From: Eledone cirrhosa
Lineage: Eukaryota
Direction: 5' to 3'
NCBI GenBank assembly: GCA_964016885.1
Contig: OZ024750.1
Location: 23,250,001-23,314,000, forward strand
DNA length: 64,000 bases
Part shown: piece after piece, positions 3,141-50,851 of the stretch
How the letters are laid out: each line of letters starts with the position of its first letter
Position numbering within the stretch: position 1 is the stretch's first letter
Notes under the pieces: model-generated
Seen by the model: the letters and a program-made list of their open reading frames with translations, nothing else
Told to the model about the DNA's origin: nothing
The model's database searches: none
Made by a program: the position numbers and the translations under genes

Positions 3141-4069
3141 TATGTAGCACTAGTTATGTACTAGATGGTGTGGACTATAACTTTCTACACGTGTCATAGA
3201 ACGTGTCATAGAACGTGTCATAGAACGTGTCATAGATCTATGACACGTTTCTCACTTTGTGACCCCATCTTTCCTCTATTCCTCCTTCATTTTGAATTGT
3301 CATTCAGTAACTTTTTTTTTACTATTATAGTTATACAGCGCTAATTACTAAAACCATTTATTTAATTGCTTGTATTAAATTACCTAATCAATTACTTTAT
3401 TAATGGTAAACAAATGAAAAAAGAAATTCTGATTTCAATGGATCATAAAATTTATTTAGCACTAGCACGAACACAGCGTGATTCATAATAGAGGTGAATA
3501 TGTAGTCATATACGATATGTTTATGAATAATAAAACTAATGTCTCGCTATAAACATTTTATGTGGTGATCATAGCACAGCTGTCTCTGTATATAAACTAT
3601 AGCTTATTCCTGTCTCAGTACTCAGTGAGTAAACGTCTCCGATAATGGTTAAATATCCTGAAACATGTCTGGCGTTCTCACACGACAACTGAGATCACTG
3701 TGACATGACTGCAGCTTAAAATGTTCATAGTGAGCCATATGTATGTTTATTATACATAAACATATCGTATATGGCTTCGTAAACACCTCTATTATAAAAC
3801 TTATGTATTAGTTAATGCCCAAATAGTTTGTAAGGTTGTAAGGACAGACAAATGCCCTTTATTAAATGCTATCAAACAAACAAACAAACGGTTAATGACA
3901 AATTCCTCGCAATTCAAAACTTCTATTTGATATAATGCCTACGTTGACCTGCTTGCAGAGAAACTAAACTAAAAACATTGAGACGTGTGCGTGTGGAGGG
4001 GGTCAACCCATCCCAGTCGCAGAAAGCAAGAACTGTTGTGTGTCAAAGCAAATATGAAATAGAAATATG

Positions 4070-4386
4070 TTTGCCTTCTTCGCCCACTTATTCCTGAGAG
4101 GGTCATGGGGGAGGAGTTCTCAAACACTCCCCCCCAGCGGGTCCTGTCAGAATCAACCGTCTCCAGCGGATCCGGTTGGATCCCGAAGCCTGACCAGCCA
4201 AGCTCATTGATGTTATCCAACCATCTTGCTCGAGGTCTACCCCTGGGTTTCTTACTTGTTGGTTTTGCCCCTAGAATCTGTCTAGCGATTCTTTCCTGAG
4301 ATATTCTAACCACATGCCCATAGTATCGGAGCTGTGATCTCTCAATTCGGAGAAGTAGCGGATCTACATGGAGTGACTCTCTGATC
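4070..4386 (-). mobile_element. 5'-truncated RTE-clade LINE, 3' end of ORF
   Basis: Translates IRESLHVDPLLLRIERSQLRYYGHVVRISQERIARQILGAKPTSKKPRGRPRARWLD, the typical RTE C-terminal (W/Y)xGHVxR..RGRPRxRWxD motif. Confidence 0.9.
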
Positions 4387-12860: not shown

Positions 12861-13143
12861 TAAATTAACCGATATAAAAGACACAGAAGCGAAAACCAAC
12901 CAAACAGTGAGTGTGTTCTGTTATTAATTCTGGCAATAGTATTACTCAAATATGACCCTCCCCAAGTATATATATATATATAAAGCGATGAAATACCAAT
13001 GAAGGTTGGAAGATCACTGATGAAGGACTAACTTTATTCATATATATATATATATATATATAACGGATTGTTTCTAATTAATATGATAACTCTAGGGTTA
13101 TAATAATAACGAATCAGTTATATATTTTATTATATATATATGT

Positions 13144-18878: not shown

Positions 18879-18910
<32 letters not shown>

Positions 18911-19019
18911 TGCTTATCGGTATCACTGGAGTGGAACGAAATTGTCGGAAGGTGCCGAAATCGTTATGGCTTCAACTGATGAAGGAAATATCCCACAGCG
19001 CAAGCTGTGGGATACGCAT

Positions 19020-19083
<64 letters not shown>

Positions 19084-19576: not shown

Positions 19577-19653
<77 letters not shown>

Positions 19654-19735
19654 TAAGAAAATAGTCAGGACCCCGACGGCTGAGCTCCGGCCGTTTCGAC
19701 AGCTAGTTATATAAAAATATATCTATATCTATCTA

Positions 19736-21024: not shown

Positions 21025-21085
<61 letters not shown>

Positions 21086-21177
21086 AGTTCGGAAACAGAA
21101 AACAAAAAACAGACAAAGGCAGGAGTAAATGTTACAAATATTATTAATTTCAAGCCTGATGAGAGTGGGGTGTGTGG

Positions 21178-32601: not shown

Positions 32602-32877
32602 GAACTATGACTATCAACACACGAACTGTGGAACTAGAACCAACTTTGACTATCAACACACGAACTGTGGAACTAGTACCAACTTTGACTATCAACACAC
32701 GAACTGTGGAACTAGTCCCAACTTTGACTATCAACACACGAACTGTGGAACTAGTACCAACTTTGACTATCAACACACGAACTGTGGAACTAGTACCAAC
32801 TTTGACTATCAACACACGAACTGTGGAACTAGTACCAACTTTGACTATCAACACACGAACTGTGGAACTAGTACTAA
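32602..32877. repeat. 39-bp minisatellite, about 7 copies
   Basis: AACTTTGACTATCAACACACGAACTGTGGAACTAGTACC repeated. Confidence 0.95.
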
Positions 32878-34384
32878 CTCTCCCACTTACTCAGGCCGCT
32901 ACTACTTAAATGTAGTGGTCCAGCCCATTCTCGCCAGTGGGAGGCGAGGTACTCTCGCACAACAGACCCTCCCAAAACCTTGTGATTAGAAGGTGAACTT
33001 AATTTAGTAACATGACTGATATAGGAAATACATTGTATGTATGTGTGTTTTCGTGTGTAAATTTTTGAGTTACAGATGGATATATTACAGATATATATAT
33101 ATAAATACACGTGTATAGAGAGAGATGTAATTCGGTTAAATATATACGAATGGGATGCGTAAAATTCCACATCGAGTATTTGATGAAGACTTGTAAATAA
33201 CTTTAAAGATTATGAAACCATCGCTAACTTAATTAAGGAAAGTACATTTTTGTTTTCATTTGAAACACTTAGTTTTCAATTAGAGAGTTATATACAAGAA
33301 GGGAAATAAATAATTTTCTATATAGATAATAAACACAACCACAAGGGTATGGTCCGAATGTAGAAGAGCCGAACTCCCACTGTCATCGCCTCCATCTCTC
33401 TCGCCATCCCCATCTCTCTATATGGTGAGCAAATGGGGTCCCACGTGCTGGCCTCCCCGCAGCCCCGGTGGACAGAATGGAGAATATGGTTGATTCCCAG
33501 AAAGAGTCGTCTCCAAGTTTATCTTCCACAACTGAGTTAAAATGATTACATTTTAGTGAGATAATTATGATAATCAATAAATTGTCAGATGAAATTTGTC
33601 CACAATTTTATCTATGCTGTTTCTATATCACTGTTATGACATTAACTTTTAAAAGTCCTACTTTGTCGACTTTTCCATTATCTGTCAACATTACTTTCTA
33701 TTTTCATCAATCTTCCGTTTTTTAAAGATAATATGCAATCAGTTATTGGTATGAAACATTAAACTGTTTAGAATGGATTAGTGCCGTAATATACTCATAA
33801 ATGTTAGTAGATTTTTGATTGAATCTTTATTTAAGAGATTGGTTCTGACAAACAACTCGTGAAAAACCAAACATAATGAGTTTTTCCTACTTGTGCCGGC
33901 GTGTGGCCTAGTTGTCTTGGGTTCGATTTATGGACTGGGCTGTGTGTTGTATTCTTGAGCAAAACTCGTTGGTTGAGCTGAAAATCAGTACCATCAATTT
34001 AACTGGAGAGTTAACCTTTCAATGAGCTGGCGTCCCCTGTCCAGAGAGGAGTCTTGTATTCTCAGTCGCTTGTGACATGCCCTAGACGTTTTAGACCAAC
34101 TTTTAGCACTTCACTTATAAATCCTACAATGTATACAAGTTGAGCTGTTCGGCTCACGATCGTAAGATCAGGATTTCGATCCCCAGTAGCGCATTGTGTC
34201 CTTGAGCAAGACACTTTATTTCACGTTGCTCCAGTCAACCCAGCTGGAAAAAATGAGTTGTATCTGTAAGTCAAAGTGTCAACCTTGTTACACGCCGTGT
34301 CCCGATGAATATTCCTGAGAACTCCCTTAAGATTGCACCTGCCTATGAAAGGTGTGCAAAAGCCAGTTGCATGTTGATGTCTAA

Positions 34385-36456: not shown

Positions 36457-36490
<34 letters not shown>

Positions 36491-36785
36491 ATTGGCTTCT
36501 ACAGGACTAGAACTGTTTCATTCGGGAGAAATCATCAGGAAGCCGACTGTCCAAGTAATATGGTGGTATTTATACCTTTTCTGGTGGTAGGAGAGGGTGG
36601 GGATTCAGATGGGTGGAGGTCATTGGTTGATGGATTTAAAGAAAAGGGAATTCTTTAAAAACTATATTTAAGATAACAAAGGCAGAAAAAATTCAAGATG
36701 GTTTTCTATATTAAATATTTATACTCTGCTATGTATTGAGTACCTTACTTACTGTGGTTACCCCCGATTGAACCCGTGATAAACT

Positions 36786-43082: not shown

Positions 43083-43270
43083 ATTTGGGACCCCGACGGC
43101 TGAGCTCCGGCCGTTTCAACAGCAAGATCCGAACGTTCGGATCTAGTTGTTGAAAAGGCCGGAGCTCAGCCGAAGGGGTCCCAAATTTTTCATATTACCC
43201 ACTCTACTACCTCAAGTATCGAGTACTCTGGTGAGTAATGGTCTAACTGGTTTTTACCGCCTCAATTCTA
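43083..43270. mobile_element. Hairpin mini-element, copy 2 (palindrome 43083-43186 plus tail into (TA)n)
   Basis: Homologous to 49962-50137; single arm also at 19668-19703. Confidence 0.8.
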
Positions 43271-43289
43271 ATATATATATAAGATATCG

Positions 43290-43938
43290 GTGTCACGACA
43301 AAATGCCCAGTCCACACTGTAAAGTGGTTGTGTAGGTGTTACGACAAAATGCCCAGTCCTCACTGTAAAGTTGTCGTGTAGGTGACACGACAAAATGCCC
43401 AGTCCACACTGTAAAGTGGTCGTGTAGGTGTTACGACAAAATGCCCAGTCCACACTGTAAAGTGGTCGTGTAGGTGTTACGACAAAAAACACCCAGTCCA
43501 CACTGTAAAGTGGTTGTGTAGGTGTTACGACAAAATGCCCAGTCCACACTGTAAAGTGTTCGTGTAGGTGTTACGACAAAATGCCCAGTCCACACTGTAA
43601 AGTGGTCGTGTAGGTGTTACGACAAAAAACACCCAGTCCACACTGTAAAGTGGTCGTGTAGGTGTTACGACAAAATGCCCAGCCCACACTGTAAAGTTGT
43701 CGTGTGGGTGTTACGACAAAAAGCACCCAGCCCACACTGTAAAGTGGTCGTGTAGGTGTTACGACAAAAAGCCCAGCCCACACTGTAAAGTGGTCGTGTA
43801 GGTGTTACGACAAAATGCCCAGCCCACACTGTAAAGTGGTTGTGTGGGTGTTACGACAAAAAGCACCCAGTCCACACTGTAAAGTGGTCGTGTAGGGGGT
43901 TACGACAAAAAGCACCCAACCTACACTGTAAAGTGGTT
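43290..43938. repeat. 46-48-bp minisatellite, about 14 copies
   Basis: GTGTTACGACAAAATGCCCAGTCCACACTGTAAAGTGGTCGTGTAG. Confidence 0.95.
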
Positions 43939-46630: not shown

Positions 46631-48079
46631 CGGAGCGGTGGCAACAGCAACGCCGAAATTTATATTTTTATCTCACGTCTTTATGGAGTGTTGTATCACC
46701 GTGTGTGTTGGGGGGGGGGGGGGGGGGGCATGTATAAGAGAGAGGGGGTGGAGGAGAGAAAAAGAGAGAGGGGTTGAGGGAGAGAGAGAGAAAGAAAGAG
46801 AGAAAGTTTTTTTTGTGTGTGAGAGAGAGAGAAAGAGAGAGGGGGTTGAGAGAGAGAGAGCGCGAGAGAGAGAGAGAGAGAGAGAGAAAGAAAGAGGGAA
46901 AGAGAGAGAGAACGAGAGAGAGAGAACGAGAGGGGGAGAGAGAGATACAACAGAAAATATATTTAATATTTGGTGGTTGTTTATAATTAAATAGGGAAAT
47001 TTCCACGGGGTCAACAGGTATCTATTTTATTAAAGTGCTAACAATATATTACGTGTCGTGTAAAGAATCGATCACGCTGTGGAAAGGGGATGGTAAAAGT
47101 ATGTGTTTTAGAGAGGGAAAGAGGGCGGCGGCGGTGGTGGTGGTGGTGGTGGCGACAACAAACACCGACATTTTTCAAGGTTTAATTTCACGTCTTTATG
47201 GAAAAGTGTGTGTGTGGGGGAGAGGGGGGGTCGTTTGAGTGGGGGTGGTTTCTGTGTGTGCGTGTGTGTGCGCGCACATCTGTTTAGCCTCCCAGATCAG
47301 CATTAACCGAACACACAGACAAAACTTTAATCGAAGACGTTCGAGCCGTAATGAAACTATCCCGTATGTTTTTTTTTTTTATATCATGAACTACATGGAA
47401 TGGAGTTCTGTTAGTTTCGACAGTGATCGTTCTAGTTGTTCAATTCGCGGCACTTCATCAGCGTGAAATTAATGTACGTACCCTTGTCATTCTCAGCGTG
47501 ATTCAATGTAACGCAGTGCGGGACAAGGCTGGCTCTTTGAATTACCAGTTTAGTCCATCGAACGAGCTTCAAAATAGTTTTCAGCTATCCAGTTTCAATC
47601 ATAAAACTTAGGTCGATTGAGGTCTAGGGTGTATCAAAAAAGAAAAAAAGAAAAAAAACATGTCCAAGATGTCACCCAGTGGGAACGAACCCGGAGCCGC
47701 GTGATTGCGAGAACTTCCTAAGCATACGATAAATAATGCCCAAGATGTCACTCAGTGGGAACGAACACGGAGCCTGGTGATTGCGAAGAGAACTTCCTTA
47801 GCATACGATTCGTATTACAGTGGATTGGCAGAGTAGGTAGAGCGTCAGACACCATGCTTTGTAGCATTATAAAGCACTCAACAAATAATTGGAGTAAAAA
47901 TACGATATTAACAAATGGAAACTATATTTATAAAACTATATTTATTTCATTATACATATTTCAAGGACACCAAGTTAAATTATGGTGTGCTTTCATCAGA
48001 TAAAATATAATATAGAGCAGTTTTATAAATAAATATTGACATACCCTTAAAGAATGCAACCATTACTGTTGGAAGCTCC

Positions 48080-49352: not shown

Positions 49353-49492
49353 TCTATCTATCTATCTAGCTCTCTCATATTCTTGCTGGCAAATGATCTA
49401 TATTTTAATATCAGTACAGTTTCTTTGTCCGTCTGTCACACGAACGCTACATTCCGTAAAAAAAAGTTCTAAAACTTATATATATATATATA

Positions 49493-49720
49493 ATAGTAGA
49501 ATACTGGAGGATTATATCCGTAGTAGTAGAGCACTCAGTCCATGGGTAGAAGTTTGGTAGAAGTAGTTCCACAGCAGTTAGTTCACCATACCGAGAGTTC
49601 GGCCTGAGTGAAGTTGTACGGAAAAAGGTTTTTCCGTACAACTTCACTCAGACCGAGCTGAAGATCCGCATAAGGTGAAACGTGTGTTCTCAGTATGGTG
49701 AACTAACTGTTGTGGAACTA

Positions 49721-49723
<3 letters not shown>
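49493..49723 (+). ncRNA. Rod-like inverted repeat containing a minimal hammerhead-like core
   Basis: Outer arms 49561-49596 / 49688-49723, inner perfect 23-bp hairpin; CTGAAGA 49658-49664, GAAAC 49677-49681, GTT 49686-49688. Confidence 0.55.
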
Positions 49724-49799
<76 letters not shown>

Positions 49800-49918
49800 G
49801 GAAACTTAGTAAAATCGAATCTCTGGCGGTTTGCAAGCAAATTCGGCGTACTTATATGAAATGATGAGTTAGCAAAGCACTCAATAAGTTAGGTCCTATA
49901 TATATATATGTATATATG

Positions 49919-49961
<43 letters not shown>

Positions 49962-49965
<4 letters not shown>

Positions 49966-50134
49966 AAGTATGACCCCGACGGCAGAGCTCAAGCCGTTTC
50001 GACGGTCCAGAAATAGCCGTCGAAACGGCTTGAGCTCTGCCGTCGGGGTCATACTTTTTCCTATTTCCCACTCTACTACTCTAAGTATTGAGTACTCTGG
50101 TGCGTTATGGTCCATCTAGTTCCTTACCACAATT

Positions 50135-50137
<3 letters not shown>
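49962..50137. mobile_element. Hairpin mini-element, copy 1, in (TA)n
   Basis: Perfect 44-bp arms 49962-50005 / 50017-50060, 11-nt loop, 77-nt tail. Confidence 0.85.
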
Positions 50138-50188
<51 letters not shown>

Positions 50189-50851
50189 TATTATGTTACT
50201 GTTGGTTCACCAAATTGAGCACTCGATGCGTAGGTGGGCCCGTTTAAATCTAGTACGTGGTGTTACACATCTGGTGGTAAACTATGGTCGTTTTCGTATA
50301 AGACGAAACATTCTTGTTTGTATTTGTTATATAGCTTTTGAGGAGTTGGTTTATTCCAGTTAAACAGTGTCGTCTTAAAGTTATCTGCCAAACAGAGAAA
50401 CGCCCAAAGACCAGGTAGTGGTATTTAAACGAGGTGATAGATTAAGTCTACCAACCCGGAATATGACTGTTGCTCCTTCAGACAGGCTTCGTAATAGTTT
50501 CCGTCAACTAAAATTCACTCACAGGTCTATGGTAAAAATACGTTACTTACCCACAAAAGAAGTGCAATAAGATTGAATCTGAAACTACGCAATTCCGAAG
50601 TGAACTTTTAAGCACACAACCATGTGTGTGCAACTTTTTTATACCAACCCACAATGAAACTAAACGACTACTTTTTTTTTAAAGGGTTCCTATCTAAATT
50701 AAATTCCCCGAACATAATTTTATATAAGAACCATCTGTTAAATTTACTTCTATCTTAGTAATGAAAGATTAATTTTAATAATTCCGTCTAACTTCTTCAT
50801 TAATTAATTGAAATAGTGTGTATTTCATTAACGAGCGGTTTAAATAATAAT

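Follow-up and report, generated by a model that had tools for sequence, protein, structure and literature searches.

The window, i.e., the whole 64,000-nt stretch of the Eledone cirrhosa contig OZ024750.1 that we analysed, holds at positions 49493-49723 a short island set inside a TA microsatellite. The left remnant of this microsatellite is a (TA)8 run (49477-49492) and its right part a (TA)37 run (49723-49796), both read directly from the sequence. Between them lie two head-to-head copies of the same repeat end. The right copy (49629-49723, plus strand) is 5′-truncated, stops at the likely pLTR end and carries no tail; it was delimited with the help of a multi-copy family found in 4 of 4 sequencing runs aligned (see below), other members of which reach (TA)n near the same place. 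The left copy (49561-49626, minus strand), recognised by comparing the arms and from the same read family, is the 3′ end of the element read outwards from a 5′ truncation at 49626. It continues into a one-sided 3′ tail of 68 nt (49493-49560, minus strand), which is missing from the right arm, resembles letters in the listed loose ends of other copies and, in a motif scan, showed TGAGYRCY at a distance of 45 nt from the TA run. A 2-nt spacer (49627-49628), placed by the arm alignment, marks the fold-back junction.

The two arms had been predicted to form a 36-bp outer and a 23-bp perfect inner inverted repeat, and our comparison confirmed both. The outer arms (49561-49596 and 49688-49723) are complementary at 34 of 36 positions, with mismatches at 49592C/49692A and 49574G/49710T, and the inner arms (49604-49626 and 49629-49651) pair at 23 of 23 positions around the spacer, growing to 31 bp (49596-49626 and 49629-49659) when two mismatches are allowed. 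Folding of 49493-49723 yielded −117.6 kcal/mol (z −12.9), a value that 0 of 200 shuffles equalled or bettered.

The right copy contains a minimal type I hammerhead (49652-49694, plus strand), an assignment based on a descriptor, an Rfam match, conservation within the family and a pattern known from Hydra-clade Penelope-like elements (PLEs). Its stem I is formed by 49652-57 and 49689-94, CUGAAGA lies at 49658-64 and GAAA at 49677-80; stem II consists of a U-U and 2 bp, stem III of 2 bp with a 4-nt loop, and cleavage is predicted after 49688 (GUU). The invariant core (C3, U4, G5, A6, G8, A9, G12, A13, A14, the A15.1-U16.1 pair and H17) is complete at 49658-49688. The original prediction, a CUGANGA/GAAA/NUH type I layout with tiny stems II and III, was therefore right as written, and we add to it a C-A mismatch in stem I of this copy (49654/49692) that it left unmentioned. 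The left copy lacks 29 nt of the hammerhead, bears two changes within the 5′ strand of stem I and retains the family G opposite 49692.

The Infernal search proposed with the prediction gave a mixed answer: cmscan did place RF00163 (Hammerhead_1) on 49652-49694, but at 14.8 bits, far under the gathering score of 34, with E-values of 0.37 on the 95-base arm and 8.7 on 2.2 kb. The Rfam model fits such variants poorly, as it missed altogether a better-formed motif at 36494-36544 (see below). Our own type I descriptor matched three times in the window as against a mean of 0.12 matches per shuffle (200 block shuffles), and 11.5% of the shuffles held at least one match. Taken alone, then, the hammerhead motif exceeds chance only moderately, and it is the family data that carry the case. 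As a monomer, this copy does not favour the hammerhead fold (+1.2 kcal/mol when forced, vs. −8.6 kcal/mol for the minimum free energy structure); the pairing probability of stem I was 0.0 in the fold of the full plus strand, where the core is bulged out, and at most ~0.0001 when the left arm was left out. Thermodynamic folding takes no account of dimers, tertiary contacts or help from proteins, so that activity is compatible with a poor monomer fold.

We aligned the right arm (49628-49723) with public sequencing runs at ≥80% likeness, in 4 of the 6 listed runs, none of the six being recorded as RNA: X1 and X2 are contig sets from one sample, X4 and X5 raw RAD reads. The family was represented by 1130 and 1098 contigs (X1 and X2) and by 6073 and 6232 raw reads (X4 and X5), counts that are not copy numbers, given that RAD reads sample few loci and that the organism read may differ from the species of the window. 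The island is thus one copy of a multi-copy repeat. At three positions the family majority differs from the window: A at 49682 (2575/2817 and 2719/2954 plus-mate reads), T at 49684 (2103/2817 and 2177/2954 reads) and G at 49692 (3008/3600 and 2973/3578 reads). At 49683, A was found in about a third of the reads (943/2817 and 961/2954) and in about two thirds of the contig depth. With the majority G at 49692, which is still visible opposite this position in the left arm, stem I of the family is fully closed. The stem III segment of the family reads AACA(A/T)TTGTT, and its A state is a perfect 10-base palindrome; the self-duplex of this 10-mer was computed at −8.2 kcal/mol for the perfect palindrome, −4.7 kcal/mol for the other common state and −3.9 kcal/mol for the copy in the window. 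This copy is therefore decayed relative to its family, with one pair of stem I disrupted and the palindrome of stem III weakened.

Among the listed variants within 49652-49694, only 1 of the 11 core positions varied, compared with 16 of the 32 others (one-sided Fisher p 0.017), the single core variant being A6 to G (64/1947 and 96/1933 plus-mate reads). When the three positions at which this copy is odd were dropped, 13 of 29 non-core positions varied among those listed (p 0.036), and when all 96 positions were taken, 29 of 85 did (p 0.084). The core is thus less varied than its surroundings, yet conservation is modest, its p value ranging from 0.017 to 0.084 with the set of positions and resting on the listed variants. 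N7 varies in the family, as expected. Few reads alter U10.1, and none of the listed variants touches U11.1; both of these U residues are the family state.

The reads also document how other copies are bounded. Upstream of 49630, the sequence continues without inversion in 854 and 836 reads and in 25 and 22 contigs, and the loose ends there have median lengths of 27-67 nt with no end of the element apparent. Among the loose ends listed, some copies join (TA)n at 49648 and others after about 49714-49723, and still others carry on downstream with letters like those of the left tail. The inverted joints listed are 49647/49687, in one X2 contig, and 49649, in 4 reads. Core-skipping joints are absent from those listed for the four runs, and a fold-back at this centre with the core gap is likewise absent among the listed features of other copies; contigs lose rare variants and palindromes assemble badly, so the joint data show only that the core gap is uncommon. 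Read depth is highest at the 3′ end, with an upward step across 49684-49692 that is ambiguous, since the odd letters of this copy at 49682-84 clip alignments and the letters in the loose ends agree poorly (agreement 0.4). The raw-read loose end halts at CATGC, ~27 nt upstream of 49630. This stop suggests a restriction site inside the element, presumably SphI, which would make RAD libraries sample the family heavily.

The anatomy of the island resembles that of PLE insertions. As described by Craig et al. 2021 (PMC8557442), PLE insertions are 5′-truncated, often have an adjacent inverted truncated copy and carry a tail at one end. At the island, a 5′-truncated copy likewise lies next to an inverted 5′-truncated partner, other copies of the family being longer upstream or truncated elsewhere, and the tail is present at one end only, as the 68-nt extension of the left copy; both types of end occur among the loose ends of the family. 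An inverted 5′-truncated copy together with a one-sided tail corresponds to the published insertion pattern, and with the family data this supports the Penelope-like origin and the inverted-pLTR reading proposed originally.

Within the PLEs, the closest likeness is to the Hydra clade, which Craig et al. define by RT phylogeny and by protein motifs (RWK, DKT, a CxCX5C linker and no CCHH). In File S2 of Craig et al., which covers Hydra and Chlamys hammerheads and leaves those of Neptune, Nematis and Poseidon outside the comparison, 14 of the 25 Hydra families have a U..U at the base of stem II, or 13 of 24 when two identical rows are counted as one motif, and 10 of 25 have a GUU cut site. Compared by eye with these entries, the canonical hammerhead with U..U and GUU holds both in the window and in the reads, while Naiads, as far as that source describes them, have no canonical hammerhead. 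The caveat originally attached to the U-U at the base of stem II can hence be dropped, the U-U being both the family state in the reads and the commonest state among the published Hydra families of that file, and so a mark of this clade. Published Hydra-clade PLEs (e.g., Hydra-1_Crog, Hydra-1_Ajap, Penelope-5_HM, Penelope-13_HM and Hydra-1_Obim) share U..U, CUGAAGA and GUU with the island, and resemble it further in their short self-complementary stem III, in a hammerhead that lies some tens of bases ahead of the 3′ end and in their insertion into (TA)n. In File S1, (TA)n is the target of 26 of 27 Hydra families, among them a family from Octopus bimaculoides. Insertion into (TA)n, which holds for the island and for other copies of its family, is a trait common to Naiad and Neptune and not exclusive to Hydra. 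Penelope-13_HM, recorded with an inverted 5′-truncated copy (PMC8557442), shares this partner with the island as well. By eye, 3 of the 6 new consensus sequences showed a GAGCACT-like motif, similar to the TGAGYRCY of the tail, close to the 3′ boundary; it lies near that boundary in Hydra-2_Amil and Hydra-2_Ajap and at the start in Hydra-1_Ajap.

There are also differences. Stem II of the island has 2 Watson-Crick pairs compared with 3-7 in the published Hydra PLEs, no RT-EN frame is linked to it, and the hammerhead of Hydra-1_Obim (Octopus bimaculoides) is unlike it in sequence. Comparison of the island with the Hydra and Naiad sequences in print was by eye, so that a weak homology of the tail or upstream region could be missed, and two 15-base probes from the island were not found in the Craig 2021 supplement, where FASTA line breaks can hide matches.

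Minimal PLE hammerheads described by Cervera and de la Peña 2014 (PMC4209133) are, like that of the island, of type I with a palindromic 15.2-16.2/loop 3 segment; they are reported to have a palindromic stem III, low, dimer-dependent activity and high variability within a genome, and to occur mostly as single motifs from truncated PLEs, with opposite-strand pairs within 100-700 bp. A review (PMC6765202) agrees that PLE hammerheads cleave as dimers. The consensus of PMC4209133 differs from the island (U-U and a 2-bp helix II): its helix II is longer, positions 9 and 10.1 are separated by an additional base, and G10.1-C11.1 is highly conserved. For PAc, a Poseidon element of Anolis, Frangieh et al. 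2024 (PMC11167929) report that two RT start sites set ends with and without a tail in vitro, that both strands are cleaved and extended at AT-rich DNA, and that the hammerhead is protein-assisted. PAc, though of a different clade, thus shares tailed and tail-less ends and AT-rich targets with the island; its hammerhead overlaps the start of an ORF, whereas the island shows no ORF, and the 68-nt tail of the island exceeds the 30-40 nt of PAc, a length that PMC8557442 cites as usual for PLEs. In the literature searched, which did not extend to the repeat libraries Repbase and Dfam, we found no description of this family. An annotation of the Octopus vulgaris genome (PMC13282606) counts 31 recently active Penelope-like families, without mention of hammerheads.

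A linked PLE ORF for RT/GIY-YIG, the search for which had been proposed with the original prediction, did not appear. No RT or GIY-YIG remnant was found in the window by a motif scan or by a Pfam search of the 150 longest of 233 non-repetitive stop-to-stop frames, in which 15 frames had weak matches, none at the curated cut-off and none to RT or GIY-YIG. Such an absence is expected where truncation has left no more than about 100 nt next to the pLTR end. Self-comparison of the window revealed neither a tandem unit nor a further copy of the island, and viral, metagenome and prokaryote contig collections yielded no relative with flanks. The sole metagenome match had unrelated flanks and was judged to be due to chance. 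Of 50 viral loci that fit a relaxed U-U pattern, none combined a stem I of at least 4 pairs with any stem II pair, and we set them aside as chance or coding sequence. One open frame of the window (3969-4385, minus strand; no Pfam match) resembles what we take to be the C-terminal end of an RTE-type LINE protein.

The island is not alone in its build. A second family lies 240 bp away, at 49962-50137 (plus strand), where arm alignment and a motif scan revealed 44-bp perfect arms, an 11-nt spacer and a one-sided tail. Of a hammerhead, each arm has the 3′ half, with GAAA, stem III and GUC, and the tail of this family has the same TGAGYRCY motif 49 nt before the TA run. Relatives of this second family were identified by comparison at 43089-43252, with a palindromic centre and no spacer, and at 19653-19708, as a single truncated copy. 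All three copies of the second family (3/3) start between CUGANGA and GAAA, and two of them are fold-backs with one-sided tails; this truncation in stem II may mark an RT pause site. An unrelated second type I hammerhead was found with the descriptor and by folding at 36494-36544 (minus strand), in a TA-flanked island (36473-36785), with a U-U below stem II and a GUA cut site. Its stem I has 6 of 6 pairs, its forced fold (−8.3 kcal/mol) comes close to the minimum free energy (−9.3 kcal/mol) and its stem III is near-palindromic, with a self-duplex of −12.8 kcal/mol; the Rfam scan gave no match to it. This island has a tail-like stretch at its other end, on the opposite strand. The third descriptor match, at 47999 on the minus strand, contains a 30-nt AT-rich stem II region.

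In total, three hammerhead-type, TA-targeting repeat families occur within 64 kb. TGAGYRCY occurs 12 times in the window, and three of its occurrences (49537, minus; 50089, plus; and 36737, plus) fall in the tails of three unrelated islands, at distances of 45, 49 and 49 nt from the TA run that follows; it is possibly a shared protein-binding or RT-start signal. Further sites lie at 49883 (minus) and 50216 (plus). The stretch 49477-50283 comprises at least four short non-repetitive islands split by TA runs, a cluster consistent with repeated insertion into one microsatellite. Three more TA-flanked short islands (12983-13039, 18903-19043 and 21072-21177) hold a lone CTGATGA with no GAAA partner at the normal distance, and resemble the half-core motifs reported for Naiad 3′ ends. 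Rfam matches around 49897-50060 (Plastid-psbJ-2 at 67.6 bits vs. a gathering score of 65.6, and several miRNA models) were rejected as reflecting a perfect hairpin beside a TA run. The window also has two tandem arrays, one at 32603-32879 (39 nt, 7.1 copies, 97% matches) with open frames on both strands, and one at 43289-43937 (46-47 nt, 13.9 copies).

We consider it probable that the island is a dead insertion of an endonuclease-bearing PLE, most likely of the Hydra clade, an assignment that we hold, as to the clade itself, with moderate confidence. We infer both the clade and the autonomous or non-autonomous status of the element. In such an insertion, the GIY-YIG nuclease of the element would nick (TA)n, and the element RNA would be reverse-transcribed from its 3′ end. 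Two start sites there, ~68 nt apart, would give ends with and without a tail, as described for PAc (PMC11167929). Synthesis would halt after ~160 nt, and the second arm would arise either by fold-back copying or by a second priming off the other strand. The hammerhead would be a passenger of the 3′ repeat, predicted to cut in the parent element only as a dimer or with the help of protein. After insertion both arms would decay, the left arm likely losing its 29-nt core by deletion. Any read-through RNA would form a long hairpin and block stem I, presumably as a by-product and not as a selected switch.

The same anatomy would be left by a short non-autonomous PLE derivative, a solo pLTR or retrozyme-like unit, mobilised in trans. 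This alternative overlaps our reading, the insertion anatomy being identical, and we regard it as possible, if considerably short of probable. It would account for the lack of linked coding sequence and for the depth peak at the 3′ end, and PLE pLTRs are the proposed source of animal retrozymes (10.64898/2026.07.22.740005). Animal non-LTR retrozymes (10.64898/2026.07.22.740005; PMC7229834) do resemble the island in being non-coding, in their type I hammerhead and in their proposed PLE origin. However, retrozymes are defined in the former source as head-to-tail tandem units, each with a full hammerhead, whereas the window holds an inverted pair with one full motif and no tandem unit, and other copies of the family reach at least 27-67 nt further upstream (medians of the loose ends) with no end in sight. 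The latter two observations also speak against the self-contained, retrozyme-like unit of 230 bp envisaged originally, as other copies continue upstream of the fold-back.

The gap in the left arm calls for separate treatment. Arm comparison shows that 29 nt of the right arm, 49660-49688 (plus strand; G5 to U17), are unmatched on the left, with a boundary that can be shifted by one base. The antisense arm had been said to lack exactly the core nucleotides; the gap is real, but it does not take in the whole core, since C3 and U4 are kept. Its 3′ end coincides, plus or minus 1, with the predicted cut after 49688. Truncation is symmetric in 3 of 3 fold-backs in the window, and the arms have in common a G at 49715, where most of the family contig depth is T. 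These two observations favour copying of one arm from the other over the use of two independent templates, and if one arm was copied from the other, the element still had its core when it inserted, and the gap is younger. Long DNA palindromes are unstable, and the left arm likely lost its core as an ordinary post-insertion deletion that broke a near-perfect 95-bp palindrome.

Alternatively, the gap could be a fossil of self-cleavage, formed when the RT ran off the 5′-OH at 1.1 and jumped to a trimmed upstream fragment held by stem I. We think this unlikely. The position of the 3′ end of the gap at the predicted cut speaks for it, as do the one contig with the inverted joint 49647/49687 and the depth step across 49684-49692. 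This step, however, overlaps the odd letters that clip alignments, no core-skipping joint is among those listed in the four runs, and the symmetric truncation of the fold-backs favours arm-from-arm copying and with it a gap that is post-insertional. For PAc, moreover, cleavage was dispensable for insertion in vitro, and no RNA-seq reads with ends at the cut were found (PMC11167929).

Less weight still falls on chance. That the motif arose fortuitously inside a palindromic, MITE-like DNA repeat targeting TA is, in our estimate, distinctly improbable, although the descriptor matches in 11.5% of shuffled windows, the Rfam E-value is 0.37 and the inverted arms look terminal. Inverted arms with TA flanks, as seen here, recall Tc1/mariner MITEs. 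Against a chance motif, stem I and the palindrome of stem III are better formed with the letters of the family, copies elsewhere are non-palindromic at this centre and 5′-truncated at varied places, the tail is one-sided, and the window has two further hammerhead-type families in TA islands.

Finally, the island RNA is probably not an off-switch: the original suggestion of a transcribed 230-nt unit whose antisense arm was selected to silence the ribozyme draws on the bulged core and the stem I pairing probability of 0.0 in the full plus-strand fold, but we find it very hard to sustain, as leaving out the left arm makes stem I hardly more probable, this copy is decayed in stem I and stem III, the fold-back centre and gap are absent among the listed features of other copies, which extend past the fold-back point, the second family 240 bp off folds back likewise, and we see neither another fold nor a trigger by which the ribozyme would be released.

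By itself, then, the island is probably a decayed piece of a mobile element of known type, with an ordinary insertion pattern. More broadly, several TA-targeting, hammerhead-bearing repeat families populate this genome, with three in 64 kb, and their U-U hammerheads are scored too low or missed by the type I model of Rfam. According to PMC4209133, evidence that PLE hammerheads of metazoans cleave in vivo is lacking. The locus would matter more if the breakpoints of the family cluster at the cut site: if the gap did arise by self-cleavage, the locus would be a genomic fossil of in vivo cleavage by a minimal PLE hammerhead with U-U, and breakpoints of the family piling up at this bond would render the role of PLE hammerheads in cells testable from genome sequence alone.
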